Shown: piece by piece, positions 11,901 to 46,340 of the stretch
How the letters are laid out: the number at the start of each line of letters is the position of its first letter
Position numbering within the stretch: position 1 is the first letter of the stretch
The notes under the pieces: model-generated
Seen by the model: the letters and a program-made list of their open reading frames with translations, nothing else
The model's database searches: none
What the model was told of the DNA's origin: nothing
Translations under genes and position numbers: made by a program
From: Mustelus asterias
Taxonomy: Eukaryota
NCBI RefSeq assembly: GCF_964213995.1
Contig: NW_027590144.1
Location: 930,001-994,000, forward strand
Direction: 5' to 3'
Length of the DNA: 64,000 bases

Positions 11901-12177
11901 GCTGTGACTCTGGAGTCACATGTAGGCCAAATGATGCAAGGGTGGGAGGTAAAGACGGCAGATTTCTTTCTCTGAAGGGCATTAGGGAACCAGATGGGTT
12001 TTTCTGACATTGGGCAGTAGTTTCGTGGTCACCAATAGACTCGTAATTCCAGATTTTGTTTTTATTGAATTCTAATTCCACCATCTGATTGGCGGGATTC
12101 AAACCCAGGTCTCCAGAACATGATTTGGGTTTCTGGATTAATGGTCAAGTGATAATAACTCTAGGCCATCGCCTCCC
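8916..12177 (-). mobile_element. Degenerate single-ORF APE-RT LINE (CR1/L2 group) with tRNA-derived 5' head
   Basis: Broken APE (VLWVGDF about 11345-11365) and RT (KAMGPDNIP, QGS..GP..F..FIN, FAD, QNLDNIHAW..KWQVTF); 5' end GGGAGGCGATGGCCTAG...GGGTTTGAATCCC (A/B boxes); no ORF1. Confidence 0.85.
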
Positions 12178-12358: not shown

Positions 12359-13239
12359 TCAATTAAGGGGACAAGCCAACAGATTTCTCAACTGCTCCCT
12401 GAATTTCCCCTGGGTCACTGCATAAATGAATGTGTTTGTGCAGCAACTCAACAACTGAAGCATATTTGCACTTTCGCGAAGGATGAATTTGGCGTCACTG
12501 TATCCATTGATTTTAACATCCTTTGTAAATCGGTCATAAAAGAACTGTACAACATACGCCAACCACAAGAGGATGAAGCTACCTGAAATTGCAAACAGTA
12601 AAACAATGGACTTTCTTCTGTTCTCCATCTCTTTATCGCTCTTGTTCTCTCTATTGCTTTGGACTGTGAGTCTCCTGCGGGCTCTATTGGCCACAAGGAT
12701 GTGTCTGACGGTCAACACATTGAACAGAAGAATCATAACGAAAGAGAGGCATGGTGTTAAAATACGGTCAGTCCAATCAAACGCTGTCCACAAAGTCGAA
12801 GTATAACGAATGTCCTTTTGTCGGCAATACCAGGGGACATTGTCAAATATATAAATGGGTTCGTGTATAAAGTACCAAGGAATACTTTTCAGGAAACTTA
12901 AAAAACAAACCATTCCTATAACCACAGCTGCCATTTTTTCAGTGCAATATTTTGTTTTCAGCTTCTTGTAACAAATGGCCACAAATCGATCGAAGGTAAA
13001 AGCGACCGTTAACCAGACAGAACTGTCTCTTGCTGCATGAATTAAGGTGATGCTAAGACTGCAAACCGGAGTGATGGACAGAAAACTGCTGGGGAAATAA
13101 ATGCCAGGAATCCGGTTTATTATCACTGCGGTGACAATAACGAGCAGGTCAGTCACTGCCATGAAGACCAGATACCGAGTGATACACCTGGAGAGACCGC
13201 ACCTTCCTCGGTTCAGGATCACAATAGCCACCAAATTAA
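12359..13239 (-). CDS. GPR139-like class A GPCR, exon 2 (TM1 end to TM7)
   Basis: Acceptor ttcttgattacag ends at 13240; NLVAIVIL, MAVTDL, FTFDRFVAIC (DRY variant), IPWYF, CCTNTFIY (NPxxY variant). The ORF-track N-terminus MASVWSVFC... is intronic. Confidence 0.9.
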
Positions 13240-15084
13240 CTGTAATCAAGAAAAAGAGAGAGAGAGAGACTTTACAAAATACACTCCAAACAGAAGCCAT
13301 GTGCTTGTCTGGATTAGAGGTATCTCATAGTCGTGATGCTTGAAATGATTAAACAGAGACCATTGCAGGAAAACAAAGATATTTCAATGAATTAACATAA
13401 GTTCATTAAATATGCTTACGCATCAATATGTCAACACAGGCGATTATAGACTGGTGAAGAAAATATGTTAAAAAAACCATTTCATTGATATTTAAGATAT
13501 CTAGTTAACAGAACAGAATCAACAGAATGGCAACTGGAATTAAATTCAGAAGCACATTATAACAATTATAATAACGAATGGAACAAGCATGAGGGATACT
13601 GCAAAGGTACGATTCCAGAAACTAATATGAAGAGACCAGAGCCGTTTACATTGTGATGGCAATAGACCTTCCTTTTGGATGTGTCTTCATAGGCTTTATG
13701 GAGAAGATTGAAATACAAACCTCAGTGAGAATTACTAGACCTTCTTCAATACAATCCTTAGCTTCCAACCGAAATGCCGAAACGGAACATGACTTAGTAG
13801 CTTCTCATGTAAGAACTAAAGATCCTGCAACATAGCAATCTCTCAAAGCTTCCCAATATCGACCAAAAATATATATTCATGTCTTCAAGTAGGATTTTAA
13901 TTAATTAAGATGGATCTAAAAGAACGATGAACCGAAGTTACATATGACCGCTGGAAATAAATGCAGGATTTTTAACATGGGAACTTTCCGAGATTATATC
14001 CATAATCACGAGCTCAGAGGGACGGAAACTTCGACAAATCTTTCAGGTTTGTGCTTCCAAACAGAAGGTTGAGTGGACCGGCTGAAGTACTGACCATGAA
14101 CTGTCCTTGCGATAAAAGTAAGAAAATAGTCTCATGTTTGTTTCATCAATTTGAGAGAGGTTGATTGAAACAATTAGAGCGGGAAAATTCAAGGACGGCG
14201 CAAGCATCACAAAGACTATCCAAAGTGAATTTATTTCCAGCTGAAAATCCGAACAGTTGATAACTTTCAAAGAGAACAGAGATCAAAGCGGACTAAAGAA
14301 AGCAGAACATCGGGATGAATATTCCAGTAAATATGTGAATGCTGACACCTTCGGAGCTCAGATGGAGCAAAACACTATTAACTGCAATGTACCTGCAAAA
14401 CGTTCAACCCATAAAAGCAAAGGATAGTTTCATGTCTTACTTCATCAATGATAATTCGTTCATTCATTATGTATTTAGCTAAAACTTTGGTGATGAAATG
14501 TTTGGTTAATAAATATATGAAGGCGTATTTAGGAACCAAGACTCTAACTTAGTTGCATACTAAACCTAGCATATATGGTTCGGTACAAACAATGCCAATT
14601 TCATGTCATTTTGACAGCAACATGTATTATTTGTTTGTTCCTTTATTTCCATGCAATCTCTACAATGATGCCAATAGTTAATGCCGCTTTTCCTTTCTTC
14701 TGGCCTGTGCGGCTCTCAGTTAGACAGCTGGTCGCGTTCTGCAACAGGGATCACTCACAATATTTCGGACAGATTCACTTTAACGTTGGGCTGTATTTTA
14801 AATGACCAGTGGTGTTTCTATATGTCACAATGCCTATCTGCTGGAGGTCATGGCATTGCATTTCACAGACGCTGAACATTCTAAACACACAGTTTCATGA
14901 AACGGGAATTCAAAACCACAAGTCAGATAAACTATTCTCTTACCAATATACTCATGCACATTCTGCCTCAATTTGCCTCCCCGCTTCCATGTATGTTATT
15001 TCATTGGTTCACAAAACGCTTGGGCTGGAATGGTGGAGCGGGCTTGAGGGGCCAAATGTCAGAATAATTATATTATTTCCTATT

Positions 15085-16015: not shown

Positions 16016-19000
16016 TTTCAATGATAAGCAGCACTCAGTGATCCAGATCTCACAGACGCTCTGTTCGACATTGAAATCATCCACTATTATACCTGTTATC
16101 CAATCTCAGGAGTGTTAATTAGGCAAATCCACCTGTTGCATAAATTACAGTCACTGATCAAACATGTTTCACAACGTCAACACTTAGATTAGTTACAGTC
16201 GCTGAATAAACGTGTAAATGCTTTCGTTGCTTTATCTGTTTTGATACATTTGAATACCTAGATATCATGCCGCATGAAGGCAGAGTTGTGTGCTTTAATG
16301 AACAGATCCTGTCTTTGTGACTTAAGTGCTAATTAATCACACTGACATTGCAAATTACTCATCGATAACATGTCGCCAAAGTTAGAAGAACTGAATCAAA
16401 AACTCATTCAGCATCAGCCTGACATAGTCACATACACAGAATTTTAACATCAGTCAAAATCAGAACTCCTGCAGTACCATTCTTGGATAGACACTGTTTC
16501 ACGATTAGGAAAGAAAAACAACTTGATATTTTGGTAGATTTGGATACAGAAAGGAGCGTGTGATCCGGAGATTGTCGTTATTAAGGATGTTTTTTTCCTG
16601 ATTGTTAAGGTGCAGGGTGATATTGTAGTTTCTTTTCAGCAAACTGTTTCAATTGTCGCCATAAATAAAACATGACTTTGTTTATAAACCGTATCCAGAT
16701 GGTCCCAAGCTGTCTGAAAGTATTGTGGATTTCTTCCCTGACGGGACAAAGGACATACTTTTTTCTTAACTCACGAATGATTGTGATTTCGCAGTGGATG
16801 TGATATGCTTTTTTTCGATGCTTTTTCGGAAGATGCCTTCTGCAGATCAATTGCTAAGACTTAATCGTACGAGAAACGCTGCTTAACATGTCATAGTCTG
16901 ATGGGAATTTAAATATGATCGCATACATGGCCACGGGACTGATATTGGAATAGGGAATTAGAATAGATAGGTACTTGATGGCCGGCACAGGCAAGATGGG
17001 CAGAATTTCGTTTCCCTTGCTGTAAATCTCGATGAAATCTCTATGATTAATATGACACATTCTCATTTGTTTGCCATCTGTGCCACACAATACCAGGCAT
17101 TGACATTGACCAAAAAGTGAAATGCTGAAGACCGCCCTCCTGGAGTGAATGGAATTACCATCACTGCATCCCCCATTATCATGGAGAAACCATTGACCAG
17201 GTATTCAACTGGACCAGCCAAATAATTGCCCTGGTATTGACCTCTTTCATTCAATAATGAAGAAGGTAAACCCGGGAATGGTCTAGTTTCAACACCTTTC
17301 GAATCAGAATTTTTGTCAAACTCCCTCTCTCCCTCTGTGTCATTTGTTTACACCAATGGATGCACCAAAGAAATGTATTCACCAAAAGGTGCTTTGACAC
17401 ATCATGTGTTCATAAAATGGCCTTTTATGTTTCTCTTAATTTCTTGTTTTGGCAGCAGCGAAAACAATTGATAATGTGAGAGTAAATTTAGTTTATAATT
17501 ATTGTAATTATCATTCGAGAATTAAGGAACAAGCTATATTAATATGTTATAAGACTTACTCGTTCTAAAAAATCTTGTGCAAAATGAAGGACAGAGAAAC
17601 GAGACATTGATTCTAATGGGAGACAAACGCTGAGGCAGATGTTTGTATTGATGGAAAATCAGAAGTTCAGGAGCCAGTTCATGAGGGAGTCAGTGAAGAT
17701 GAAGGAAACATCAAATAAATTACACGAGAAGAGATTGATTCGTAAATACAGTCATTTATTGTGGAGTGATGGCAGACATGAGGTGAGAGGAAGATAACTA
17801 CTGAATTGGTGTGAACAAGAAGAAAATAGTTAAGTAAATATTTTTTTATAATACCTGTAAGTCATAGCCCAATGATATCATCGTAAACGCTTTGTCTCAG
17901 AAAGTAGTCAATGACCATTAATTCTGAATGAAATATATAGTTTGTATTAGAGAGAATAGCAGCTCCTGTGTGTATTATGGAGATTGGCACCCTCTGTGTA
18001 TATTATAGAGAATAGCAGTCCCTGTGTGTCAAACTAGGCATGGGCAAACATAAAGAGAACTGTGAACAGATCATGCCAGTATTACATAACTGACAGCTCC
18101 CTCGCTCCTGCTGCTGACCTTCTGGATTCCGGCCTCAATCCAGAGATTTGACACGTGATTTGAATGAATGCCCCAGTTGTCATTATTAAGGCAAGTTCAC
18201 CATTTATGTCTTCTTTGTTTCTATATTTTATCAGATGACGAAGCAGGGCGGGGGAAAAGAAAGGCAGAAAATTAGGCAGTTTCCTTAGCCAGCGAGGCAG
18301 ACGTTCCTCCAACATCATTCCAAGTTTGACATGGATGATCAGTGCTAAAATCAAATCTCTCTTCCCTTTTGATTTATAAAGCAAGTGCCGGTGACAGGGA
18401 CTGGGCAGACTCGAGGATGATTCAGTAACAGTGGCAGAGGCTGCCTTGAACTTAATAATAATGTAGCTACTTCTATTGATTGTTCCCTTGCATTGAAAAA
18501 GGCGAGGAAGCGGATTGGGTGAGATAAATTGTCGATTGCAATTGTCAGGCACATTACAATGGAACAATGATATTTTGGCCATAGTGCAGATTTATGCTCA
18601 ACACTGAGTGAGACAGGGCATTGTGTGCAGAAATAGTAATCGATACATCATGACAGCGGCCCGTGTTACTGCCGGTACCTGATGAAAGTCTTCATTGACA
18701 ACGGGGGGAGACAGTGAGGACATGGGAACTGCAGAGTGTTCTGACCCCTGAGGAGAGAATGACATGTTAGTCAGAGGAACAGATCGGAATTGGTTCCTTT
18801 AGAGCTTTTTCTGCAGTTTGGGAGATCTAGCACACATGCCAATTCCGACACTTCCGGAACAAAATCGCGTTTGTAACTAATGTCTGGTGCTCAGTATGGC
18901 TGGAGAGATAAAATATAGAATTCTCCTCAGGGCAAACTTCAGTTCCACGAAAATAAACGGCAATAGTGACTTTCTAATCAGAGATCAATCCAGTGACGTT

Positions 19001-19060
19001 AGCTGCAAAGCAAGAATTTCAAAGTAAAAGTGAACTCCTGTCTGATACCGTACAATTATC

Positions 19061-19099
19061 AACACATGTTCAGGTTCAGCCGGGCTCTGTGTTTCTGTG
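19061..19099 (-). other. Degenerate 23-RSS of V1
   Basis: CACAGAA + 23 bp + ACATGTGTT. Confidence 0.7.
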
Positions 19100-19405
19100 G
19101 GTTTCAGTGCGCAGTAATACACCGCAGAGTCGGTCAGATCTGTTTTAGACACTTTCAGTGGGACAGTGCGGTTTGTATCATTGAACTCCACTGAACAACG
19201 GTCCCCTGGGGATCTCTCTGTATTCCCAGTGTATTTACTTATCTTCTGAAGATATTCAAGAAATCCATTGGGATACAGACGGTACCAGAAAAGGTAATAA
19301 TAGTCAATGATTGTAGTTGTATAATTACAGAATAACTGAACATCATCTCCTTCACTCACGTGACTGCAGCTGGGGTCTGTGAAACTGAGTCTCCTCCACC
19401 ATGTC
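19100..19405 (-). pseudogene. TCR alpha/delta-type V pseudogene (V1)
   Basis: Acceptor cttacag; DSVSQTP, then a 1-bp frameshift, then EGDDVQLFCNY...LFWYRLYP...DSAVYYCALKP; possible damaged leader at about 19474-19530. Confidence 0.88.
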
Positions 19406-20324
19406 CTGTAAGAACCAAGAGTCATGTTAAATTCAACAATGTCAGTTCACTTTGTTTATAGACCAGAATACACCCGTCACCCTGGCCAATAATTTGAGAA
19501 ATAGTCCATGGGATCTAAACAGAAACACATTTCCCGCAACTCAGATTCTGAACGGGAACGCGATTGGCTCGATTGAATAAAACACTCTTTAATGAACATT
19601 CGGCACCTTCTATGGAGATCAGTTCCTTACCTTACTTGTAATTTGATGGGGAAACTGTCGGCGTATTTAAAGGCCTGGTGTTTGCCAAAGTCCCTCACTG
19701 GTTCCGGCGGGACCGATGATCTCACCATAACTCTTCCACTCTCATTCACCTAAGGAACTTTGCTACTCCCTTGCTCAGACGAAGTCGATCCGGATGATTT
19801 TGGCTTTCGGAATCAACATACATTTTACCAATCGAACTGTCGGATTGGATGTGGTGAATGGAAAGTACGCGAAACACACCGTCTGTAACTTGCGAACCTA
19901 CCGGTTGATTGAGCTGCCGCTGTGAGGAATAAGCACAAAGTCACAGGAGACATGTTTGCCGAGAGGTCGAGGCGGAAGTGAGCAGAGTGGATTGAAGCTG
20001 AAATTTGAATTGGCCGGAGTTGCGAAGAAGTTGCGTTACATTCGGGCCCCTGTTGATTGGTTCATTGCCATCCGCATCATCATTTTACATCCAATCAGCT
20101 TAAAACTGATGTTGTGTTCAATTCAATCAGTCAGCACACAGCTCCTTTGATCTCCTCTGCCTTCCGTCAGCGCGGGGAGAACGGAACAAACTGAAGTTGT
20201 TCACCTCTCAGCAGGGAACTGGACAAAATTGGCCCTTTGACCCCGAAGGCGGAGAAAGAACAGGAAAGTGCCCTGATGTTTTCCAGGATAAGAGCCAAAG
20301 CCGAAATTAAAAGAACAGCTCAGA

Positions 20325-20665: not shown

Positions 20666-20861
20666 GCCGAGGCTGAGTGATACAATATCCATGACACGGA
20701 TCTGGAAAAGAAATGCAGCAGCGAGTCAGTTGCACCAGGTGCATTCAAAGAGAAAAAATAAAGAGAGAGTTTATGATCGACAGTTTATGGGCTCAGTCTA
20801 GGTTCCAGAACTCGAACAGTGTTTTAAATCTGTACATTGTATTACCTGTCGCCGCCACCAG

Positions 20862-23059
20862 AGTAAGAAGTCTCACAACGCCAGGTTAAAGTCCATCAGG
20901 TTTATTTGGTAGCACAAGTTTTCGGAGTGTCGCTCCTTCTTCAGATGAATGAAGAGGTGTGTTCACAAACAGGGCGTACATAGATTCAGACTCAATGTAC
21001 AAGATGATGATTGGAATGCGAGTCTTTACAGGTAATCAAGTCTTAAAGGTACAGACAATGCGAGTGTAGAGAGGGTTAAGCACAGGTTAAAGAGGTGTCT
21101 TGTCTCCAGCCAGGATAGGTAATGAGATTTTGCAAGCCCAGGAAAGTCGTGGGAGTTACAGGTAGTGTGACATGAGCCCAATATCCCGGTTGAGGCCGCC
21201 ATCATGTGCGCGGAACTTGGTATCAGTTTTTGCTCGGCCATTCTGCGTTGTAATCTGTCGTAAAGGCCGCCTTGGAGAACGCTTACCCAAAGATCAGAGG
21301 CCGAATGTCCGTGACTGCTGAAGTGTTCCTTGACAGGAAGAGAACCGTCCTGCCTGGTGATTGTCGAACAGTGTTCATTCACCCGTTGTCGTTTGCGTCT
21401 GCATGGTCTCGCCAATGTATCATGCATCGGGACATCCTTTCCTGCAGCCTATCAGGTCGACAATTTTGCTGAGCCGCAAGAGAATGCACCGTGTACCTGG
21501 TGGATAGTGTCCTCACGTGAGATGATGGCATCCGTGTCGATGATCCGGCACGTCTTGCATAGGTTGCTGTGGCAGAGTTGTGTGGTGTTGTGGCCACTGT
21601 TCTCCTGAAGGCTGAGTAGTTTGCTGCGGACAGTGGTCAGTTTCAGGTTGTGCGGTTGTTTGAAGGCAGGAAGTGGGGGTGTGGCGATGGCCTTGGCGAG
21701 ATGTTCGTCTTCATCGATGACATGTTGAAGGCTCCGGAGAAGATGTCGTAGCTTCTCCGCTCCGGGGAAGTACTGGACGACGAAGGGTGCTCTGTCAAAC
21801 GTGTCCCATGTTTGTCTTCTGAGGAGGTTGTTGCTGTTTTTCGGTGTGGCGCGTCGGAACTTTCGATCGATGAGTCGAGCACCATATCCTGTTCTTATGA
21901 GAGCTTTCAGCGTCTGTAGGTGTCTGTTCCGATTCCCCTCATCTGAGCAGATCCTGTGTATACGGAAGGCTTGTCCGTAGGGGATGGCTTCTGTAACGAG
22001 TTTAGGGTGGAAGCTGGAGAAGTGGAGCATCGTGATGTTATCCGAGGGCTTGCGGTACAGGCAAGTGCTGAGGTGACCGTCCTTAATGGAGATGCGTGTG
22101 CCCAAGAATGCAACCGATTCCGGAGAGTCGTCCATGGTGAGTCTGATGGTGGGGTGGAACTTGTTGATGTCATCATATAGTTGTTTCGGTGGCTGTTCGC
22201 CATGAGTCCAAAGGAAGAAAATGTCATCGATGTATCTAGTGTATAGCATCGGTTGAAGGTCCTGTGCGGTGAAGAAGTCTTGTTCGAACCCGTGCATGAA
22301 GATGTTGGCATATTGAGGTGCGAATTTGGTCCCCATGGCTGTTTCGTGTGTCTGGATGAAGAACTGGTTGTTGAAGGTGAAGACGTTGCGGTCCAGTATG
22401 AAGCGGATGAGATGTAGATCTGGAGATTGGCAGTTGACGGCGTTAAGTACAGCGTCACCTTGCTACATTGCGAGAACGTGCAGAGGCTCCGAAAATGGAT
22501 GAATGAAAACCGCTCGACAATCATCTGGCAGGAGTGTTCACTTCCTGTCGGGGAACACTTCAGCAGTCACGGTCATTCAGCCTCTGATCTTCGGGTAAGC
22601 GTTCTCCAGGGCGGCCTTCACGACACAACAACGCAGAACCGCCGAGCAAAAACTGATAGCCAATTTCCGCACATATGAAGACGGCCTCAACCGGGATCCT
22701 GGGTTTATGTTACATTTTCTGTGAACCCCCACGACTTGCCTGGTTTTGCAAAATCTCACTAACTGTCCTGGCTGCAGACAACACACACTTCTTTAACCTG
22801 TGCTTAACCCTCTCTCCGCTCACATTGTTTGTACCTTTAAGACTTGATTACCTGCAAAGACTCGCATTCCAACCATTACCTTGTAAGTTGAGTCTGTATC
22901 TATGTATGCCCTGTTTCTGAACACAACTCCTCGCTCACCGAGGAAGGAGAGACATTGCAAAAGCTTGTGCTATCAAATAAACCTGTTGGACATTAACCCA
23001 GTGTTGTGAGACTTCTTACCGTGCTTACCCCAGTCCAACGCTGGCAGCTCCACGTTATG
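20862..23059 (-). mobile_element. Penelope-like element (RT + GIY-YIG) with inverted 3' copy and 11-bp TSD
   Basis: RT MGTKFAPQYANIFM...RYIDD (21452-22336); GIY-YIG C-terminal part (RQRVNEH...PVKEHF); 22455-23020 is an inverted copy of the 3' end; gccgccaccag at 20851-20861 and 23060-23070. Confidence 0.92.
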
Positions 23060-23815: not shown

Positions 23816-24196
23816 TCCACCCTTAAGAAAGCTTTAGCAAGAATTAGAGAACAAAATGCGCGAAATCGTGTGCTTGCTGTAAACTCTCCCGAAAGCAAAG
23901 AACTATAATAGGAAGGAAAGAATAGCTGCTCTGGTTCAAGTGAACAATTGTGTCCTGGAATTACCAGTATACACCACCAGACGGCGGTATAAGACAATAT
24001 GTAATGTGAAAGGCTCAGGTGTGTGCTCAGAGGCTGTGTGGGTAGTTGAAGGGATACTCAGTTTCTTTTCTTAATTCAACATTAACATATTACCGAATTG
24101 AACCCGAAGCGTGTATTTGGCACCCGGTTAATTTTTCTGATCATAATTTTCATCCCCTGGATCTATGCAGATCTCGGTATTGCGTGTCAACTGAGA

Positions 24197-24529
24197 ATGT
24201 TGACGATTCACATCGGCTTTCTGCTGTTTTTCACTCTGATCTGCGCGAAGGTAACTGAGGAAGATGAGTTGCTGCAGATCCCTCCGCGGATGGTTTTCAG
24301 TGAAGCGGGAAACATATCCATGAACTGCACTATCTTCATTGCTTTTAGCGTCCTGCATTGGTACGAACAGCTCCCGAACCAGTCACTGCAGCATCTGATG
24401 ATGGCCACCAGAGGAACCGGTCAACGCGTGAGGATCACTGCTTCAATCGAGGGAGGCAGCAAATTCAGCATCCTGACTGTGGGAACCGCGCGAGTTACAG
24501 ACTCTGCCACATATCTCTGCGCCGTAAGG
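24197..24529 (+). CDS. TCR alpha-type V segment with leader fused in one exon (V2)
   Basis: MLTIHIGFLLFFTLICAKVTEE-DELLQIPP...ISMNC...LHWYEQ...DSATYLCAVR; open frame with Cys23, Trp41 and Cys104. Confidence 0.85.
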
Positions 24530-24570
24530 CACAGTGTGACAAACGCAGGGAGTTCCCGTGCACAAAATCC
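24530..24570 (+). other. RSS of V2 with 25-bp spacer
   Basis: CACAGTG (24530-24536) + 25 bp + ACAAAATCC (24562-24570). Confidence 0.8.
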
Positions 24571-25254
24571 ACTCCACCGTGTCTGGAATATTGACGTTTC
24601 AATATGCGTGGTCGTAAATTCCATGGGTCGGGAGAAAGAGATGAAAACACATCCAGAAACCGAAAATTTAAACAGGTTTAAATGAAGAGAATTGAAAATA
24701 TAGTCGTAAAATGAAGTTAACATGCAAAATCGGAATGAGTGAAAGATCCAGAATAGAGGTACAATAAGAATGCGTAAAGAGCACAGAAGATTTTGAATCA
24801 ATGGAAAGAGAAGAGGAGGAAAATAAAAAATAATGAGTGTGATGCATAGAGTTAAAAATCTGGTGAAATCATAACTGAAATGACTCAGAAATGATGTAAA
24901 ACGGCGTTTGTTTTAACTTCAGTCAAACTTCCTTGATAGTTCGACAGTTTATGGTTTGATAACCAGCTCGTGAAGATCTGTTATTGGATCTTGCCTCATA
25001 AATAAATTTACACCCTGCTCACTGTTCTGACAGTGTCAATTCTTCCGGCTGGAGATGCCCTGAGAGGGCACTGTGGTCCCACGTTCTTCCCTGTTATCAA
25101 CTGAAAATTATCGCTAAACAACTGGCGGTAACGCAGCCAGATGCAATCCCGAAAACATTATGTTCTCTCTGACCCACGATGTCTGCCCTGAGATATTTGA
25201 AATATTTTCCTGTTTCACCGCTTGAATCGGCAGTGGCCCGGGGTTCTTTTTTTA

Positions 25255-25630
25255 AGTCATTTGTGGGATATGGACGTCGCTGGCCGGCCAGCATTTATTG
25301 CCCATCCCTCGTTGCCCTTGAACTGTGTGGCTTGCTAGTCCATTACAGCGGGCAGCTGAGAGTCAACCACATTGCTTTCGCTCTGGAATCCCATGTAGAC
25401 CAGACCAGGTAAGGACGGTAGATTTCTTTCCCTCAAGGCCATTTGTGAACCAAATGGGGTTTTTCATCAATCGAAGATGGTTTCATGGTCATCAGTAGAT
25501 TCTAAATTGCAGATCTGTTTATTGAATTTAGATTACACCATCTACCGTGACGGGATTCGAATCCGCGTCCCCAGACATTAGCTGGTTTTCTGGATTAGTT
25601 TTCTGGTGATAATGTCACCAGGCCTCCCAT
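25255..25630 (-). mobile_element. tRNA-headed SINE, internal-deletion relative of the 8916-12177 LINE
   Basis: About 65 bp match the LINE 3' end, joined at ttgcccttg|aactg.gtggcttg to the LINE 5' head and core. Confidence 0.85.
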
Positions 25631-28219: not shown

Positions 28220-28795
28220 ATAGAAACATCGATATAGAAACATAGTAACTAGACTCAGGAGCAGGCCAGTCGGCCCTTTGAAACTGCCCCACCATTCATT
28301 TTGATCATGGCTCATCAAAGTCAATCTCCTGATCCTGCCCTCCCCAATATCCCTTTATCCATTTGGCCCCAAGAGCTATATCTACTTTCTTCTAGAAATC
28401 ACACAAACGTTTGGCCTCAAATTCTTTGAGTGGCAGTGAATTCCACACGTTCACCACTCTCCGGGTGAAGAAACTTCTCCTCACCTGAGTCTCAAAAGGT
28501 TTAAACCTTACCTCAGTCTGTGACCCCTAGATCTGGACTTCCCCACTATCGAGAACATTCTTTCTGAATCTACTCCGTCTAATCCTCTTTGCATTTTATT
28601 AGTTTCTATGAGGTCCCCTCTCACTCTTCTGAACTCCCGATACAATTACAGCAAAACATCCCTTTTCCTATACTCAAATACCCTTGCTATGACGGGTAAC
28701 ATACCATTTGCCTTCTTTACTGCCTGCTGTACCTGCACGTTTACTTTCAGCGACTGACGCACGAGGATACCCAACTGTTGCTGAGTACCCATCTC
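28220..28795 (-). mobile_element. CR1 3' fragment
   Basis: tagaaacat tail repeats, CR1 3'UTR and C-terminal ORF2 remnants. Confidence 0.8.
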
Positions 28796-28814
28796 CGTCA
28801 TGCTTTATCCCTTC

Positions 28815-28980
28815 AGAGGGATAACAAACTGCAAGCTCAAATGTGCAGATCAAAGTTTCGTAAAATTACAAAGATCACAGAGATACCGATTAGCAAAGTC
28901 CTGATTTCCGACATCGCTGTGTATTTCAGTGCCATGAGTCCCATTTTGCTGCAGAGACGTAGTGGGTCCCGGTCAAAATG
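28815..28980 (+). pseudogene. 3' relic of a V segment (V4), paralog of V3 in opposite orientation
   Basis: KITKITEIPISKVLISDIAVYFSAMS (Cys104>Ser) vs V3 KTAKITELTIGNTLMTESAVYFCSLES; CATTTTG-23-GTCAAAATG; downstream flank homologous to V3. Confidence 0.75.
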
Positions 28981-29481
28981 CCACAGCGACAAATCCAGTG
29001 ATTGCTCAGCAGAGGGCGCTCTCACACTGGTGAACAACAGCAATAGTTCACACTGCGGTGCGATAGCCAAAGGGATCGTTCATAACCTGCAATAAATACA
29101 AAGTACAACAAAAGCTAGTGAGGTCCACTCGTAGAACTACATTACTTTATGATCTCAATAGTCAACATATTAAGAATAGACTCCACAATTACAGCTGCGG
29201 AACCTTATTTGTTTTATATTAAATGTCCTTGTTGCTTTCAATTTAATTTCCTACTCCGTCCCTCCCATCTCCAGTTTCCACTTTTCACCGGTAATTTTAC
29301 GTTTTTCCAATATTTAGTTTAACGATTCAAAACCTAATTTTCTGCTCAGCATCTTAATTCAGTCTGGAAAAACTTCAGTGAGTCACAAAAGGAAACTGTC
29401 AGGACAAGCCATTGAATAACCAAATATACTATCCTCTTTTCTTCCTCCTCTTCTATTCTTCTCTTCCCCTCCGTGGGATTG

Positions 29482-31367: not shown

Positions 31368-31832
31368 ATGCGGCTGCTCAGCATCTGGGTTGTGTGGGCA
31401 ATATGTCTGACAGGTAAATGTGGACCAAACACATTTCAACTTTTTAAAAAATATTTTTGAAACATGATCTGAAACAAAATTTTCAACAGTGGTCGGTCAG
31501 ATATTCTTATATTTGTTTTTCAGATCTGATTCATGGAGATTCTGTCACTCAGTCGCCGTCCTCAGAAGTTAGGGCAGAAGGAGAAACGTTAACTTTACAT
31601 TGTAAATATGATACTGAAATGAGCTACTACTATCTATACTGGTACCGGCAGTACCCAGACTCACAGCCTGAGTTCATATTGTGGAAAGGCTCGGGCAGCG
31701 GTGAAGATAAAGCCTATTTTGCCAAAAACCGTTTCTTTGCTGAACTTCAGACCGAGAATAAATTTACCAGTTTATCCATCTCGGGTCTGAAGCTGACTGA
31801 CGCCGCCGCGTATTACTGCGCGCTTTCAGACG
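31368..31832 (+). CDS. Intact TCR alpha/delta V gene segment (V5): leader 31368-31413, V exon 31524-31832
   Basis: MRLLSIWVVWAICLT-G|GTAAAT...ttttcag|DLIHGDSVTQSP...LTLHCKY...YLYWYRQYP...DAAAYYCALSD; no stops or frameshifts. Confidence 0.95.
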
Positions 31833-31871
31833 CACAGTGATATAAAGCAAGCTCAGCCCTGTACAAAAACT
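31833..31871 (+). other. Canonical 23-RSS of V5
   Basis: CACAGTG + 23 bp + ACAAAAACT. Confidence 0.95.
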
Positions 31872-33691
31872 GCCTTTCACTGCAGAGTGCAGCTGCTGTC
31901 TGTTGGGGTCTGTGGAGGATTGTAGTAGATGCAGCCGCAATGTGCAGCGAAAGGAAACCAAACTCACCTCGAATGAAACTGTTCCCAGGAGAGACTGAGA
32001 AAACAAACTTCAGAATTCAATCAGACAAACAGATCATCGCAGAATCACATTAGAAGACACCCGTTCGAAATCCCGCCCTTAATAACTTGTTCTCTTCCCC
32101 CGGGATGCTCTTGCCTCACCTCCGTGTCTGTCTCTGGTTCTCTGAGGCCAGTTGGTGGTGATCTGGGGTTGATATTGAAAGAGAAGTGTCCGAGCCTGGC
32201 TACAGGCAGTGCCCTGACAGGGGAATCGCCGGACTTTCAGAGACTGGGGAGGAGGAAGTGGTGGCCGGGGAAGGTAAGTCTGGTCTGTAAATTATCATCA
32301 GAAAATTCCGGATTGTTCGTGTTGACAAGAACCACACCAGCTTCCAGGAAACATTCTGAAGCTCAGTGCTCACTGAGGAAAATCTCCTTGGGGTTGTTTT
32401 AAAGATGATAGTCACCCCTTTGCGAAATCTATTCAGTGTTTATAAGTTTTCTTTGATCCAGCAACGCACTCTGATTAAATAAATCGTGTTAACAGGCCGT
32501 GGTCTAAGGCTCCACGAAACTGCGAGAGAGATGGAGAGGGTTGTTCAATGTCACAGACAGTCCCGGAAAACACATCGAAGGAAAAAGAAGTAAATTCAAG
32601 TAAGGAAGTAAATTTCTGAATGCTGATTTCAGCATAACTGCACTGGATTTAACCAGTACAATTCCGTACGTTTTCCTGAATTTTGTTGTTATTGTAAAGT
32701 TCCAGGTGACTCTGCATTTGGAAGCGGAATTTTTACTTCTGTTTAGCAGTGAGAGCGCTGTCTGGATACTGGGAGTATGTTTTTTTTTGTGTTCTGGATC
32801 TGTTACTTCTCTGTAGCAGTGTTGGCTCCATAGCACAACAATGCACGGCGATGTCAGAGAGAACTTCTCCTGTGATATTTCAAGGGACAACTTTGTTTCC
32901 TTGTGAAAATCAGCAGCGAGTGTAACTCCGAGAGCTGTTTGCCTTCAGTAAATGTGTCAGAGCTCCCGCAGATACTGGAGGAACAGGTCAAAGTTGGGAC
33001 ACTGTGGTTGTCGTATGTCGGCAGTCCAGTGTTAATGAGGCGCTGTTCTTCTAGAACTTTGCGCTAACAATTCAGAATTTCCTGACGATAAACTACAGAC
33101 CAGGGTTACATCCACCCCGGACCTCCCAGTCCGACCAAAAGGACTTAGAAGCTTTGGAGAGAGTTCAAAGAATGTTCCCCAGGATGCTGCACGATCCCGA
33201 GGGCGTTGGCTATGAGGAGTATGAATAGCCTAGGACTGTTTTTACTGAAATACAGAGGCTGAGGGAAGACCTGGATTGGATCTACAACATTATTGGAGGC
33301 ACAGACAGGGTGGACGTGTCAATTACAAGGGGAGCACTGGTTCAAGGGGAAGTTTGAGGGAGATTTGTTCCCAGGAGCAGGCTGAGGGTAAGAGAGTGGG
33401 TTTTCTGACTGTAATTAATTATTTATTTTTTCAGTTAATTTTGGGTTTAAAATCGGAGGTTTTTTTCAAAACCGGAAGTCGGGCCAGGAGTGGCCTGGGG
33501 AAGTTTTTGGAGGGTTTAAAAGCGCACCAAGGTATACAGCGGGCAGCATCGTAGCGGGCAGCAGAGTGAGTGGGAAGTTCAGTGAGCTGTCAGGGCTTTG
33601 GCTCACAGGGCTTGGACGAGCAGGGGTGAGTTTTTGTTTCCTTACACTCTTATTAACTTTTCACTGTCTTACTTGACATAAAGTGTCCAGT

Positions 33692-34621
33692 ATGAGTGTG
33701 AAACCAGTGTGTTGTTCCCAGTGTAGGATGTGGGAGGTCCTGGAGGCATCTGGCCTCCCGGACATCCACATCTGTGAGGGGTGTGTCGAGCTGCGGTTCC
33801 TGAGGGACCGTGTTAGGGAGCTGGAACTGCAGCTCGAGGATCTTAGGCTGATGAGGGAGAATGAGGAGGTGATAGACAAGAGCTATCATCAGGTGGTCAC
33901 ACCAGGGCCACGGGAGGAGGCCAAGTGGGTGACGGCCAGGAAGGGTAAGGCTAGGGTGGTTGAGAGCACCCCGGTGGATTTGCCCCTGCACAACAAGTAC
34001 TCCTGCTTGAGTACTGCTGGGGGGGACAGCCCGCCTGGGGGAAGCAGCAGTGGCCGTGTCTCCGCAGTGGAGTCCAGCCCTGTAACTCAGAGGGCTAAGG
34101 AAAAGAGGAGGAAGGCGGTATTAATCGTGGACTCGATGGTGAAGGGAACAGACAGGCGTTTCTGCGGAGGTAGGCGAGATTCTCGCATGGTGGTCTGCCT
34201 CCCTGGGGCCGGGATCCAGGATGTCGCTAGTCGCGTCCCGGAAATCCTGAGGTGGGAGAGAGAGAAGCCTGAGGTAGCGGTACATATTGGTACCGCTGAT
34301 GTGGGTAGGAAGGGAGAAGGGGTCATGAAAAGGGAGTACAGGGAATTAGGGAGACAGCTGAGAAAGAGGAAAGCAAAGGTAGTAATCTCAGGATTACTGC
34401 CTGTGCCACGGGAAGGTGAGGGCAGGAATGGAGTGAGGTGGAGGATGCATGTGTGGCTGAGGGACTGGTGCAGGGGGCAGGGATTCAGGTTCCTGGATCA
34501 TTGGGACCTCTTTAGGGGCAGGGGTGATCTGTATACAAAAAACGGGTGGAACTTGAATCACACGGGGACCAATATCCTGGCCAGTAGGATGGCAAAGGCT
34601 ACTGGGGAGAATTTAAACTAG
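33692..34621 (+). CDS. CR1 ORF1 (Cys knuckle, coiled coil, esterase-like fold)
   Basis: MSVKPVCCSQC...CEGC; VCLPGA; VISGLLP; homologous to copy 1 ORF1. Confidence 0.9.
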   Translation: MSVKPVCCSQCRMWEVLEASGLPDIHICEGCVELRFLRDRVRELELQLEDLRLMRENEEVIDKSYHQVVTPGPREEAKWVTARKGKARVVESTPVDLPLHNKYSCLSTAGGDSPPGGSSSGRVSAVESSPVTQRAKEKRRKAVLIVDSMVKGTDRRFCGGRRDSRMVVCLPGAGIQDVASRVPEILRWEREKPEVAVHIGTADVGRKGEGVMKREYRELGRQLRKRKAKVVISGLLPVPREGEGRNGVRWRMHVWLRDWCRGQGFRFLDHWDLFRGRGDLYTKNGWNLNHTGTNILASRMAKATGENLN

Positions 34622-34626
34622 ATAGG

Positions 34627-37600
34627 TTGGGGGGAGGGGAGCTAGAAGAGTTGACTAGGATCAAGGAACTAATTGATGGGGGGGAGGATGCAGGGGTAAG
34701 GGGAAGTACAAAAATAATGGTAGAGGAGAGGGTGCAAGTGAATGAAGGCGGTAATTTAGGTAAGGGAGGAGAGGGAGTGGGTGTTCGCGACTCATCAAAG
34801 CGGGTCCAGATAAAAGCTGGAGTAAGGACACTTTGCCTGAATGCACGAAGCATTCGGAACAAGGTAAATGAGTTGATGGTGCAAATCAGCACAAGTGGGT
34901 ACGATCTGGTGGCCATTACAGAAACGTGGCTGAAAGGTGACCAGAACTGGGAGATGAATATCCAGGGGTATCAGGCGTTTAGGAAGGATAGACAGGAAGG
35001 AAAAGGTGGTGGGGTCGCGCTATTAATAAGAGATAATATCAGGGTAGTACTGAGGGATGGCATAGGCTCTGAGGAACAAAACGTGGAATCATTATGGGTA
35101 GAGATGAGGAATAGTAGGGGGAGAAAGACACTAGTAGGTGTGGTATATAGGCCTCCAAATAATAATGTTGAGGTAGGGAGGGCTATAAACAAGCAGATAA
35201 GGGATGCGTGTAAAAACGGAACGGCAATAATCATGGGGGACTTCAACATGCACATTGACTGGCAGACTCAAGTCGGTAAGGGTGGAATGGAGGAAGAGTT
35301 CTTAGAATGCTGTCGGGATAGTTTCCTTGAACAGCATGTTACGGAACCGACGAGGGAACGAGCTATTTTGGATCTGGTATTGTGTAACGAGGTAGGTAGA
35401 ATTAAGGATCTTATTGTGAAGGACCCTCTTGGGTCTAGTGACCACAATATGGTCGAATTTCTGATTCAGATGGAAGAGGAGAAAGTTTGGTCCCAAACCA
35501 GTGTCCTCTGTTTGAACAGAGGGAAATATGATAGGATGAGGGATGAATTGGCTAAGGTAGACTGGGAGAGCAGGCTGGCAGGTAGGATAGCTGAGGAACA
35601 GTGGAGGATTTTTAAGGAGATCCTTCTCAGTTCTCAGCAAAAACATATTCCAGCAAAAAACAAGGATTGTAAGAAAAGGGAGAACCAGCCGTGGATAACG
35701 AAGGAAATAAAGGAGAGTATTAAAATAAAAACAGCTGCGTACAGAGTGGCCAAAAATAGTGGAGAAACAAGTGATTGGGAAAAATTTCAGAAACAACAAA
35801 GAGAGACTAAGAAAGCGATAAAGAAAGGAAGGATAGACTATGAAGCTAGGCTAGCAATTAATATAAAAAATGATAGTAAAAGTTTTTATAAATATATAAA
35901 AAGGAATAGAGTGGCTAGAGTGAATGTTGGACCCTTGGAGGACGAGAGGGGGGAGTTAATAGTGGGAAATGAGGATATGGCTGAGTCTTTAAATAAGTTT
36001 TTTGTGTCGGTCTTCACGGTGGAGGACACAAATAGTTTGCCAAACATTAACGATAGAGGGTTGGCAGCAGGAGAAATACTTAATACAATTAATGTTACCA
36101 GAGAGGCAGTGCTGGGTAGACTAATGGGACTGAAGGTGGACAAGTCCCCGGGTCCGGATGGAATGCATCCCAGGGTATTGAAAGAAATGTCAGAGGTAAT
36201 AGTGGATGCGTTAGTGATTATTTATCAAAACTCGTTGCATTCTGGGGTAGTGCCGGTTGATTGGAAAACGGCTAATGTTACGCCGCTGTTTAAAAAAGGA
36301 AGGAGACAAAAGGCGGGTAACTATAGGCCGGTCAGCTTAACATCTGCAGTAGGGAAAATGCTGGAATCCATTATTAAAGAGGAGATAGCAGGGCATCTGG
36401 ATAGAAATGATTCGATCAATCAGACGCAGCATGGATTCATGAGGGGAAAGGCGTGCTTGACGCACATGTTGGATTTTTATGAAGATGTGACTAGGGCGGT
36501 TGATGGAGGAGAACCGGTGGATGCGGTGTTTTTGGATTTCCAAAAGGCGTTTGATAAGGTGCCCCATAAAAGGCTGCTGAAGAAGATTAGGGCACACGGA
36601 GTTGGGTGTAGTGTGTTAAAGTGGATTGGGGACTGGCTATCCGACAGGAAGCAAATAGTCGGAATAAATGGGTGTTTTTCCGGTTGGAGGAAGGTAACTA
36701 GTGGCGTGCCGCAGGGATCGGTACTCGGGCCGCAACTGTTTACCATTTATATGGATGATCTGGAGGAGGGGACGGACTGTAGGGTAACGAAGTTTGCAGA
36801 CGACACAAAGATAAGTGGAAAAGTGAATCGTGTGGAGGACGGAGAAGATCTGCAGAGAGATTTGGACAGGCTGAGTGAGTGGGCGAGGATATGGCAAATG
36901 GAGTATAACGTTGAGAAATGCGAGGTTATACACTTTGGAGGAAATAATAACAAAAGGGATTATTATCTCAATGGAAACAAATTAAAACATGCTACCGTGC
37001 AAAGGGACCTGGGGGTCCTTGTGCATGAGACGCAAAAGCCCAGTCTGCAGGTACAACAGGTGATCAAGAAGGCAAATGGGATGTTGGCCTATATCGCGAG
37101 GGGGATAGAATATAAAAGCAGGGATGTCTTGATGCACCTGTACAGGGCATTGGTGAGGCCGCAGCTGGAATACTGTGTGCAGTATTGGTCCCCTTATATG
37201 AGGAAGGATATATTGGCATTGGAGGGAGTGCAGAGAAGGTTCACCAGGTTGATACCGGAGATGAGGGGTTTGGATTATGAGGAGAGGCTGAGGAGATTGG
37301 GTTTGTCCTCGTTGGAGTTTAGAAGGATGAGGGGGGATCTTATGGAGACTTATAAGATAATGCGGGGGCTGGATAGGGTGGAGGCGGAGAGATTCTTTCC
37401 ACTTAGTAAGGAAGTTAAAACTAGAGGACACAGCCTCAAAATAAAGGGGGGTCGGTTTAAGACAGAGTTGAGGAGGAACTTCTTCTCCCAGAGGGTGGTG
37501 AATCTCTGGAATTCTCTGCCCACTGAGGTGGTGGAGGCTACCTCGCTGAATATGTTTAAAGCGCGGATGGATGGATTCCTGATCGGTAAGGGAATTAAGG

Positions 37601-37632
37601 GTTATGGGGATCAGGCGGGTAAGTGGTACTGA
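34627..37632 (+). CDS. CR1 ORF2: APE endonuclease + reverse transcriptase
   Basis: 1001-aa open frame; NARS, ITETW, GDFN, SDH, DFQKAFD, GVPQGS, FADD. Confidence 0.96.
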   Translation: MGGGELEELTRIKELIDGGEDAGVRGSTKIMVEERVQVNEGGNLGKGGEGVGVRDSSKRVQIKAGVRTLCLNARSIRNKVNELMVQISTSGYDLVAITETWLKGDQNWEMNIQGYQAFRKDRQEGKGGGVALLIRDNIRVVLRDGIGSEEQNVESLWVEMRNSRGRKTLVGVVYRPPNNNVEVGRAINKQIRDACKNGTAIIMGDFNMHIDWQTQVGKGGMEEEFLECCRDSFLEQHVTEPTRERAILDLVLCNEVGRIKDLIVKDPLGSSDHNMVEFLIQMEEEKVWSQTSVLCLNRGKYDRMRDELAKVDWESRLAGRIAEEQWRIFKEILLSSQQKHIPAKNKDCKKRENQPWITKEIKESIKIKTAAYRVAKNSGETSDWEKFQKQQRETKKAIKKGRIDYEARLAINIKNDSKSFYKYIKRNRVARVNVGPLEDERGELIVGNEDMAESLNKFFVSVFTVEDTNSLPNINDRGLAAGEILNTINVTREAVLGRLMGLKVDKSPGPDGMHPRVLKEMSEVIVDALVIIYQNSLHSGVVPVDWKTANVTPLFKKGRRQKAGNYRPVSLTSAVGKMLESIIKEEIAGHLDRNDSINQTQHGFMRGKACLTHMLDFYEDVTRAVDGGEPVDAVFLDFQKAFDKVPHKRLLKKIRAHGVGCSVLKWIGDWLSDRKQIVGINGCFSGWRKVTSGVPQGSVLGPQLFTIYMDDLEEGTDCRVTKFADDTKISGKVNRVEDGEDLQRDLDRLSEWARIWQMEYNVEKCEVIHFGGNNNKRDYYLNGNKLKHATVQRDLGVLVHETQKPSLQVQQVIKKANGMLAYIARGIEYKSRDVLMHLYRALVRPQLEYCVQYWSPYMRKDILALEGVQRRFTRLIPEMRGLDYEERLRRLGLSSLEFRRMRGDLMETYKIMRGLDRVEAERFFPLSKEVKTRGHSLKIKGGRFKTELRRNFFSQRVVNLWNSLPTEVVEATSLNMFKARMDGFLIGKGIKGYGDQAGKWY

Positions 37633-40411: not shown

Positions 40412-40869
40412 AGTCTGAAAGCGCAGTAATACACAGCAATGTCACTCAGCTGCAGACCCAAGATGGTTAAACTGGTGACTTTATTCTCGGTCAGGAGATT
40501 AGCAGAGAAACGGATCTTAGTAACTCTGCTTTATATTCAAAGCCTCCGGAGCTTTTCCACACTATAAACTCAGGCTGATTATCAGTGCACTGTCGGTACC
40601 AGTATAATCTATAGCTTCTTTCTGTTGTATCATAAGTACAGGTCAATGCCACCGCTTCTCCTTCTGTTTTAATATGTGCGGGGCGCCGCTAGGTGACAGA
40701 ATCCGCATTAGTCAGATCTGAAAAAGGTGATCACATAGTAATAGGCCAGGCCAGAGCGTGGAAAGATTTCAACCCTGCTTGACAAATGAGAGAAAAAACG
40801 AAATGCACTTAATCCCAAATTACCTGCCAGAAATGCTACCCACACAACCCAGATGCTGAGCAGCCGCAT
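40412..40869 (-). pseudogene. TCR alpha/delta V pseudogene (V6), paralog of V5
   Basis: Leader MRLLSIWVVWVAFLA (40869-40824); V exon from 40717 with DSVT* (TAG 40689-40691) and a 1-bp frameshift near 40520; ends DIAVYYCAFR. Confidence 0.92.
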
Positions 40870-41111: not shown

Positions 41112-41471
41112 TATTCATTTGTGGGACATGGGCGTCGCTGACTGGCCAGCATTTACTGCCTATCCCTAGTTGCCCGATGGAAGTTGAGAGTCAATCACTT
41201 TGCTCTGATTCTGGAGTCCCATGTTGGCCAGACCAGGTAAGGATGGCAGATTTCCTTCCCTAAAGAACACTAGTGAACCAGATGGGGTTATCAGACAATC
41301 GGAAATGGTTTAATAGTCATCAGTAGGTTCTTAATTCCCGATATTCTTTTATAAAGTTTAATTTAATCCAGATTTTTTTCATTGAATTCTAATTCCATCA
41401 CCTGCCTTGGCGGGATTAGCTGAATTTCTGGATCAAGAGTCCAGCGGTAACACCACTCGGCCATCGCCTCC
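41112..41471 (-). mobile_element. tRNA-headed SINE related to the 8916-12177 LINE
   Basis: Head GGAGGCGATGGCCGAGTGG (A box), core ggcagatttccttccctaaag, LINE-type 3' end. Confidence 0.85.
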
Positions 41472-41845
41472 ACGATGTTAAACACTGTCTGGTTACATTG
41501 AGTCCATAGCTCGAGTTTTGGTTTTATTCTGGGCCAACTTGTACTCTTGAGTTCCCTTAGCTCCCTTGCAGAGACTGGTGAATCCCCTTCAAAGTTAAAG
41601 CTTTTTGTTCACACTTTCAAGGGACTTCAACGTCGCAACCGATGCTGGAATATGTTGCCCTACTTGATCTCGGGCAGGAATAAGCGAGCTTCCATTTTAC
41701 ACAGTTGCAATCTTGTTAGGGATCTTGAAGATGGTGTGATTCCCATGCCCCTATTGTGCTTCTCTTCGGGCGGTAGGGGTCGCGGGTTTGGAAGCTGCTG
41801 TCGAAGTGCATTCTAGAATCAGAGCAAAGTGATTGACTCTCAACT

Positions 41846-42025
41846 TCTGGCCTGGCCTATTACTATGTGATCACCTTTTTCAGATCTGACTAATGCGGAT
41901 TCTGTCACCTAGCGGCGCCCCGCACATATTAAAACAGAAGGAGAAGCGGTGGCATTGACCTGTACTTATGATACAACAGAAAGAAGCTATAGATTATACT
42001 GGTACCGACAGTGCACTGATAATCA
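41846..42025 (+). pseudogene. Inverted partial duplicate of V6 (intron end to FR2)
   Basis: Reverse complement of 40576-40755, including the same TAG. Confidence 0.9.
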
Positions 42026-42029
42026 CCCT

Positions 42030-44289: not shown

Positions 44290-46340
44290 TCAGCTCACAC
44301 ACACACTCTCTCTTANNNNNNNNNNNNNNNNNNNNNNNNNNNNNNNNNNNNNNNNNNNNNNNNNNNNNNNNNNNNNNNNNNNNNNNNNNNNNNNNNNNNN
44401 NNNNNNNNNNNNNNNNNNNNNNNNNNNNNNNNNNNNNNNNNNNNACATACTATCTCACACACGCACACACACTCTCTCTCACACACACACACACACTCTC
44501 TCTGTATCTCACCCGATGCTGTACCTGTCCTGGGTGTGTTTGATGTGTGGCAGCTTTTCCCTGTATCTATCCCCATGCTGTATCTGTCATTGGAATGTTT
44601 GATCGTCATGATGTGGAGATTTGATAGTTATTTGATAGTGACAGTGTAGAGGGAGCTTTACGCTGTATCTAACCCCGTGCTGTACCAGTCCTGTGTGTGT
44701 TTGATGGGGACAGTGTAGAGGGAGCTTTACTTTGCATCTCATCCCGTGTTTCAGTTACTGATAGACTTTCGAGGAAGATCAGGTCACACACACGCTCTCC
44801 TTACACACTCTCACACACACACACACACACATGCTCTCTCTGTCTCTCACACACACATACACTATCTCTTACGCACTCTCTCACACACACGCTCTTTCTC
44901 TCTGTCACACACACTTTCTCTCTCACACACATTCTCTCACACACACTTTCACGCTTGCACACTCTCACCCATGCATTCTCTCTCACTGACACACTCTCAC
45001 ACACATACACTCAGTCTCTCACACACACATACACTCACTCTCTCACACACATACACTCACTCTCTCACACAAACACTCACTCTCTGACACACATACACTC
45101 CCCTCTCACACACAAACACTCACTCTCTCACACATACACTCTCTCTCAAACATGCACTCTCTCACACACACACACACACTCTCACATACACACTCTCTCT
45201 CACGTACACGCTCTCTCTCATGTACACGCTCTCTCTCACGTACACGCTCTCTCTCACGCACACGCTCTCTCTCTCGCACATGCTCCCTTTTTCGCACACA
45301 CTCACTCTCTCTCGCACACACTCTCTCTCTCTCACGCACACTCTCTCTCACGCACACTCTNNNNNNNNNNNNNNNNNNNNNNNNNNNNNNNNNNNNNNNN
45401 NNNNNNNNNNNNNNNNNNNNNNNNNNNNNNNNNNNNNNNNNNNNNNNNNNNNNNNNNNNNNNNNNNNNNNNNNNNNNNNNNNNNNNNNNNNNNNNNNNNN
45501 NNNNNNNNNNNNNTCACGCACACGCGCTCTCTCTCACACACTCTCTCGCACAGTCTCTTTCTCACACACACTCTCTCACACACACACACTCTCTCTCGCA
45601 CACACTCTCTCTCACACACACACTCTCTCTCTCGCACACGTTCTCTCTCTCGCACACACTCTCTCTCACACACACACACTTTCTGACACACTCTCTCGCA
45701 NNNNNNNNNNNNNNNNNNNNNNNNNNNNNNNNNNNNNNNNNNNNNNNNNNNNNNNNNNNNNNNNNNNNNNNNNNNNNNNNNNNNNNNNNNNNNNNNNNNN
45801 NNNNNNNNNNNNNNNNNNNNNNNNNNNNNNNNNNNNNNNNNNNNNNNNNNNNNNNNNNNNNNNNNNNNNNNNNNNNNNNNNNNNNNNNNNNNNNNNNNNN
45901 NNNTCTCGCACTCACTCTCTCTCTCGCACACGTTCTCTCTCTCACACACACTCTCTCTCTCACACACACACTTTCTGACACACTCTCTCGCACACACACT
46001 CTCTCTCACACACACTCTCTCTCACACACACATTCTCTCACACACACTCTCTCTCTCTCACTCTCTCACACANNNNNNNNNNNNNNNNNNNNNNNNNNNN
46101 NNNNNNNNNNNNNNNNNNNNNNNNNNNNNNNNNNNNNNNNNNNNNNNNNNNNNNNNNNNNNNNNNNNNNNNNNNNNNNNNNNNNNNNNNNNNNNNNNNNN
46201 NNNNNNNNNNNNNNNNNNNNNNNNNNNNCTCTCTCTCTCTCGCACACACTCTCTCTCTCACACAATCTCTCTCACACACACATACAGATACACACTCTCT
46301 CTCACACACACACACATTCTCTCTCACACACACACACACA
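44290..46340. repeat. Compound (CA)n/(CT)n low-complexity region with N gaps and a few 69-bp satellite units (about 44500-44750)
   Basis: Direct inspection. Confidence 0.9.

Follow-up and report, generated by a model that had tools for sequence, protein, structure and literature searches.

Introduction

Where the bodies of SINEs come from is stated to be an open question in a survey of Repbase (PMC5786205), whose passages on the subject trace such bodies only to the 5′ UTRs of RTE and Vingi elements and assume that the Pol III head was added later. A repeat-rich, eukaryotic stretch of 64,000 nt from the shark Mustelus asterias (contig NW_027590144.1, positions 930,001 to 994,000; hereafter the window) poses this question in a different form, since the head, body and tail of a short element can all be found here within one autonomous parent, apparently of a clade other than RTE and Vingi. 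Did the short element arise from the LINE by deletion, or did the LINE capture the SINE?

Here we describe the short element as real and well supported: it is SINE-like and derives, by internal deletion, from a shark LINE with a single ORF. Events of this class are already known; the new part is a parent that itself carries a tRNA-type head.

Results

The short elements consist of the two ends of a longer element

Three short copies lie in the window, on the same strand as the long form described below:

25255-25630, minus strand: S1, short element with head, body and tail (375 nt, junction at 25321)
41113-41471, minus strand: S2, short element with an extra 30 nt gone at the junction (41176/41175)
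53546-53751, minus strand: S3, short element with body and tail, 5′-truncated, junction at 53610 as in S1

S1 is composed of the first ~330 nt and the last ~65 nt of the 3.27-kb long form (12177-8915). Its positions 25321-25624 align with 11848-12167 of the long form (70.7% identity over 321 columns, E 7e-41) and its positions 25258-25321 with 8918-8981 (76.6% identity over 64 nt, E 8e-9), so that both ends are colinear with one autonomous non-LTR element; in a four-way alignment every block of S1 has its equivalent in the long form. Both segments include base 25321. The microhomology at the join, a point raised in the initial annotation, thus maps to one common T, which is no real microhomology, and ~2,867 nt are absent. 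The absent segment, first thought to be ~2.9 kb of coding sequence, comprises 31 nt of leader and nearly the entire single ORF, and the last four ORF codons are retained, as the opening of the short-element tail.

The junction is identical in two of the three copies, the alignment placing the joins of S1 and S3 at the same point, as originally proposed; the deletion in S2 is larger and nested. A structure of head, core and LINE tail had been ascribed to every copy, and this is wrong for S3, which is headless. The further loss noted for S2 is real and turns out to be two deletions, 30 nt over the junction and ~23 nt taking out the B box. Compared with the long form, the tails of S1 and S2 score 51 and 61 (maxima of 300 shuffles, 27 and 24, respectively), and that of S3 scores 16, which is below its shuffle maximum of 28 (300 shuffles) and not significant; the tail homology of S3 runs via S1, at 78% over 193 nt spanning the junction. 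The three elements tested showed no convincing target-site duplication, and internal T4 runs number 0 in all three short copies. Being shorter than 700 bp, non-coding and provided with a 3′ end common to a LINE, the short elements have these features of the SINEBase definition.

A recent inverted duplication (41812-42029 versus 40572-40755 plus 41180-41215, 97-99.5% identical) couples 36 nt of the S2 body to a 184-nt stretch upstream.

The long form is a single-ORF retrotransposon with shark relatives

The long form and its parts were delimited as follows:

8915-12177, minus strand: long form, a single-ORF non-LTR retrotransposon with a tRNA-like head; this copy is full-length and decayed
12090-12177, minus strand: tRNA-like head with A- and B-box-like motifs
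11848-12089, minus strand: body, common to the short elements and belonging to the 5′ leader of the long form, from the alignments
11817-11847, minus strand: leader found in the long form only, 31 nt from the deletion point to the likely start codon
8968-11816, minus strand: single APE endonuclease-reverse transcriptase ORF, with stops and frameshifts
8915-8981, minus strand: 3′ end common to the short elements, with the last four codons and the 3′ UTR
51987-52079, minus strand: reverse transcriptase (RT) fragment from a second copy of the long form, which a segmental duplication repeats near 58900-59000

The long form measures 3,263 nt, of which the body takes 240 nt; in this copy the body carries a 13-nt insertion near 11929-11941, with loose contig ends at 11929. 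Directly past its 3′ end stands T5A6 (8913-8903). The ORF begins with an ATG at 11816, ends in a stop at 8968 and matches Pfam Exo_endo_phos_2 (E 2.5e-7) and, below the cut-off, RVT_1 (E 6e-5); both of its ends align with single-ORF proteins of 940-990 aa on contigs of 3.2-4 kb. There is no ORF1 upstream, nor room for one. An in-frame ATG is present at 11870 in the long copy, and in S1 and S3 a stop follows the corresponding ATG. On the same strand, ~180 nt upstream of the head, ends an intact single-exon rhodopsin-family GPCR ORF (12359-13324, minus strand; 7tm_1 E 7e-21).

The close protein relatives of the long form are from sharks: proteins of Heptranchias, Heterodontus, Rhincodon and Pristiophorus contain pieces of its family (58-74% identity), and relatives outside sharks are mostly 23-36% identical, with one at 42% over a short stretch. 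In a quick tree (38 hand-chosen rows, from the APE to the RT start only, and without a named Zenon reference) the long form fell into a group of 28 rows (SH-aLRT 97) with Chilo, Loxostege and amphioxus proteins, apart from the CR1 elements of the window and outside the lepidopteran subclade. It has the features of a CR1-Zenon LINE, namely a single APE-RT ORF, no ORF1 and a length of about 3.3 kb, and we would place it in a Zenon-like branch of the CR1/Jockey group, “Zenon-like” being a label given here. The host range of Zenon is treated in parts of PMC10294476. A “CR1-Zenon like LINE” has been counted in the whale shark (bioRxiv 10.1101/443036); this RepeatModeler class, matched by name only, is probably the same family, and the passages concerned count it without giving a structure, a head or a derivative.

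Four organisms carry the long form as a high-copy family

Contigs with 80% likeness were collected from four of 21 listed sequencing runs (X1, X11, X14 and X18), which represent four organisms and four studies, X1 possibly being the window's own source. Each run yielded 79,000-99,000 matching pieces, with cover in every bin, and the depth of bins inside the long form was 691 to 1.3 million versus 1-42 in the unique flank, figures that are not copy numbers. The long form is thus a high-copy family in all four organisms examined. Loose ends pile up at 12177 in two of the four runs (639 and 529 reads in X1 and X11), fixing the 5′ boundary of the family there, and one X11 contig has the same head and 5′ flank as the window copy, which makes this insertion older than the divergence between organisms A and D.

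Just inside the LINE-only sequence, at position 11842 (6 nt past the boundary), 108, 94, 125 and 25 contigs of X1, X11, X14 and X18 carry T, at 87-99.7% of depth, where short-element sequence would give C; the farthest of these contigs lie 54, 71, 54 and 32 letters from the contig end. LINE-only sequence 37 nt past the boundary is present in 55-86 contigs per run, again in all four organisms. From the contigs at 11842 and their distance to the contig ends we infer that body and ORF are linked in many copies. Among the 32 contig pieces listed, of about 363,500, not one spans 11848, and no joint of the S1 type is among the 15 listed of 4,771, possibly because the tail of this copy is less than 80% like SINE tails; the loose-end consensus at 8970-8972 resembles SINE tails in three of the four runs.

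Could the long form nevertheless be a one-off chimera, or a nested insertion combining a LINE and a SINE copy? Only one full-length copy of the long form was read, with 70-80% similarity to the short elements; no target-site duplication was found, and 11848 is unbridged among the contig pieces listed. On the other hand, its ORF runs unbroken into the tail common to the short elements, its SINE part stops exactly at the body/tail boundary, its LINE part begins 31 nt before the ATG, and 25-125 contigs per run, in four of four organisms, extend over the LINE-only position 11842. We therefore regard such a chimera as highly improbable. That the long form might be unique to this locus had been allowed for at the outset, and the LINE-only sequence in all four organisms speaks against it.

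Searches of other collections gave no further copies. The junction motif had 0 matches in metagenomes and the body motif 0 in a collection of non-eukaryotic genomes; motif matches in three viral and 42 metagenomic loci are due to chance, with a real alignment at 0 of 45; a plasmid search for further copies returned 0; and no relative was confirmed when viral contigs and genomes were scanned at the protein level. Protein searches with a peptide spanning the body-ORF boundary and with translated SINE frames were likewise negative (0 of 25 candidates and 0 of 3, respectively).

The head is probably derived from a tRNA

Heads were scored with A- and B-box patterns that we take to represent the consensus. 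The long form has an A-box-like motif at 12168-12158 (+10, two mismatches) and a B-box-like motif at 12105-12095 (+73, one mismatch), a pair equalled or bettered by 78 of 17,276 window stretches. In S1 the B box has one mismatch and the A box is decayed; in S2 the A box is perfect and the B box deleted, so that no copy has both boxes clean. The T-arm (B-box arm) of the head scores 29 against the tRNA-Asp gene of the window (shuffles 15.4±2.7). ARAGORN calls the heads at a relaxed threshold only and makes antisense calls too, Rfam gives 0 matches at E≤1 over window positions 8000-60000 and only chance-level non-tRNA matches on two heads, and the heads fold no better than shuffled sequences (z-scores -1.0, -1.6 and +0.6). 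Taken together, a tRNA origin of the head is likely, not proven. The tRNA-Asp gene (5749-5821) and a tRNA-Gly gene (5956-6027), both on the minus strand, are adjacent.

With regard to known SINE families, the element is not SacSINE1 or another Deu-type SINE, as its head differs (SacSINE1 2-78) and its body is unlike the Deu alignment. Motif searches for three conserved SINE domains found no match in the body: the Deu motif occurs four times in the window at chance level, never inside these elements, and the Meta and UCON3 motifs, each one short motif, once each at chance level outside them, arguing against a MetaSINE or a UCON3-domain SINE.

Nested deletions favour derivation of the short form from the LINE

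One joint in X18 (organism G) connects 9001 with 11844 with seven letters between (depth 658; one row among 12 listed of 433), and is a second junction, in which more of the LINE is kept on either side. The long form, this X18 form, S1 and S3, and S2 thereby make up a nested series, each member lacking colinear sequence of the longer one. Deletion is favoured by this series, by the second junction and by the short form having no nucleotides of its own, whereas capture needs a break exactly on the body/tail boundary. The initial annotation, which had left the choice between deletion and capture, is upheld in its inference, and it is the deletion that these observations single out.

In sharks, then, the short form is in our assessment probably an internally deleted derivative (SIDE) of a tRNA-headed single-ORF LINE. 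The parent would be the high-copy 3.3-kb retrotransposon, whose 5′ leader would combine a tRNA-derived head with A and B boxes and a 240-nt body. Reverse transcription or recombination may have skipped from the final ~65 nt to the part of the leader that directly precedes the ORF; the deleted product would have retained a Pol III promoter together with the 3′ recognition end. With both kept, it could have spread in trans as an ordinary SINE on its parent's enzyme.

A SINE-first history, in which an ancestral SINE had the head and a slightly longer body, the LINE swapped its own 5′ end for that of the SINE, and today's SINE gained the LINE tail by a separate template switch, appears unlikely. 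A tRNA or a SINE must in any case once have supplied the tRNA head, and exchange of SINE modules is described as common (PMC5499810, PMC4824008). Moreover, lepidopteran Persaeus, which has the Zenon 5′ end, is described without a tRNA head (PMC6740152), and the shark head is thus probably a later addition in the shark lineage. However, this history takes two events with breakpoints within a few bases of each other, none of the three window copies combines the body with another tail, and the body matches none of the three conserved domains checked by motif.

The surrounding window

Immunoglobulin V-set segments lie at 18985-19446 (minus strand), 24086-24685 and 31448-31840 (both plus strand), three of three tested, with a possible further one at 28700-29095 (plus strand); one segment is followed by a 23-spacer recombination signal. 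These are likely T-cell receptor alpha/delta V genes, and the window is probably part of a T-cell receptor locus. Two CR1-type elements (827-4678, minus strand; 33677-37632, plus strand) have an open ORF1 with a GDSL esterase domain and an open ORF2 of 956 and 1014 aa; both ORF sets are intact, and the first element is flanked by a 320-nt inverted repeat (284-602 / 5056-5374, 90% identical). A segmental duplication (50234-52795 / 57186-59710, 97.7-98.9% identical) has an N gap in its first copy, and a tandem array with a unit of ~69 nt occupies 46342-47706 and 44445-44748. An RT fragment of another retroelement (20859-22566, minus strand; RVT_1 E 4e-6), which we take to be Penelope-like, has an inverted partial copy at 22461-23019 and is strongly depleted in C3 runs. 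A second tRNA-headed SINE family, presumably resembling HE1/V-SINE, is more abundant, with about a dozen copies:

15090, 23530, 29483, 30612, 48810 and 49158: second SINE family
49600, 51230, 54305, 55930, 56505 and 58180: second SINE family, continued

T4 runs are scarce in the long form

If Pol III reads the whole element, its sense strand should be without T4 runs. One such run is present in 3,263 nt, where shuffling of bases predicts 6.5 (p≈0.006) and shuffling of dinucleotides 4.7 (p 0.023); synonymous-codon permutation over 914 in-frame codons, in segments that exclude the frameshifted stretch holding the single run, gave 0 versus 3.6 expected (p 0.014). A4, C4 and G4 runs occur in normal numbers. 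T4 depletion was found in none of six control retroelement pieces, and 340 overlapping windows of the same length elsewhere, unmatched for T content, have at least six T4 runs each (median 16). The sole run, at 9904, is absent from the paralog at 51987-52079 and from its duplicate near 58900-59000, which together count as one copy in this comparison. Decay alone could create 1.6-4.9 T4 runs at assumed rates of 2-6%, and none of nine listed changes to A in family contigs creates one. The T5 at 8913-8909, just beyond the 3′ boundary and before A6, stands where a terminator would be expected; the boundary had been set before this T5 was considered.

The scarcity of T4 hints, tentatively, that Pol III may use the same head to transcribe the parent LINE itself. 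The full form of this idea, that of an autonomous LINE that amplified across sharks and is read by Pol III from end to end, purged of T4, with the body acting as a cap-independent leader and with one deletion yielding a complete SINE, is equally speculative; as eight ATGs lie upstream of 11816, translation of an uncapped RNA would need internal initiation. More probably, the deletion took place as proposed and Pol II transcribes the long form, from a promoter in the body or by host read-through, with the head as a passenger that pays off only in the short form and with the T4 scarcity due to chance or to avoidance of Pol II processing signals. This rival concerns transcription alone and is compatible with the deletion origin. 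In its favour, an uncapped Pol III RNA with that many upstream ATGs would be hard to translate, the T4 test is of one copy, and among the 56 run classes tabulated one control class, C3 of the Penelope-like fragment, gave a lower p; TTC:TTT is 19:7 in the long form and 22:1 in that control. LINEs are, in addition, defined as Pol II transcripts (PMC3531059). Against it stand the specificity of the depletion for T4, its survival of dinucleotide shuffling and codon permutation, its absence from all six controls and the lack of the single run in the paralog.

Discussion

SINEs had been taken in the initial annotation usually to share only the 3′ tail with their partner LINE, which understates the precedent: deletion derivatives of RTE, Ingi/Vingi, R2 and CR1-Zenon elements have been published (PMC5786205, PMC6740152). 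The closest likeness is with the Persaeus SIDEs of Lepidoptera, which arose repeatedly by internal deletion from a single-ORF Zenon element of 3.3 kb (PMC6740152). As in the shark, a parent of ~3.3 kb with a single APE-RT ORF gave rise to elements, there of 260-390 nt, that join the parent's 5′ end to the ORF end and 3′ UTR. As that source describes them, however, Persaeus elements have no tRNA homology or Pol III promoter, whereas the shark head has A- and B-box-like motifs; they include the ORF start and a variable middle, whereas the shark form has no middle and breaks upstream of the ORF; and they break at a 5-bp repeat, whereas the shark junction shares one T. The proteins of the shark element and of the lepidopteran parent are only about 30% identical.

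Bov-tA, AfroSINE, CoeSINE4 and SINE2-1_EC also take body and tail from one LINE (PMC5786205). The parents of these bipartite SINEs are RTE or Vingi elements, and the survey has the tRNA head joining after the deletion, the LINE being headless; the shark parent is Zenon-like and the autonomous element carries the head. For RTE-1_DAn and relatives, of the RTE clade, a LINE with a tRNA-like sequence is reported in a sentence that says nothing about its position, a promoter function or a SINE derived from it (PMC5786205). SacSINE1 and other DeuSINEs (PMC5499810; Deu alignment from PMC7245038) include tRNA-headed shark SINEs of similar length, and SacSINE1 has a different head and a tail that comes from L2-2_CM; the short element described here has no Deu domain. 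ZenoSINEs and bivalve SINEs, in the passages on them, use Zenon tails only (PMC6685494, PMC11481361). A literature search that covered few subscription papers found no paper on this family, which may already be named in Repbase or Dfam, and none on a Pol III-transcribed autonomous LINE; the sequence motifs of the family were absent from the paper texts and supplements searched.

A Pol III-type head on an autonomous parent with scarce T4 runs is more unusual than the deletion itself. Since both forms are abundant in sequenced sharks, the direction and timing of the derivation are directly testable. If the parent is transcribed by Pol III, the rule that assigns LINEs to Pol II and SINEs to Pol III would fail, and the family would offer a case in nature of a 3-kb Pol III RNA that has to be translated. 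A single internal deletion would then give a complete SINE, which would be a new route of SINE birth.
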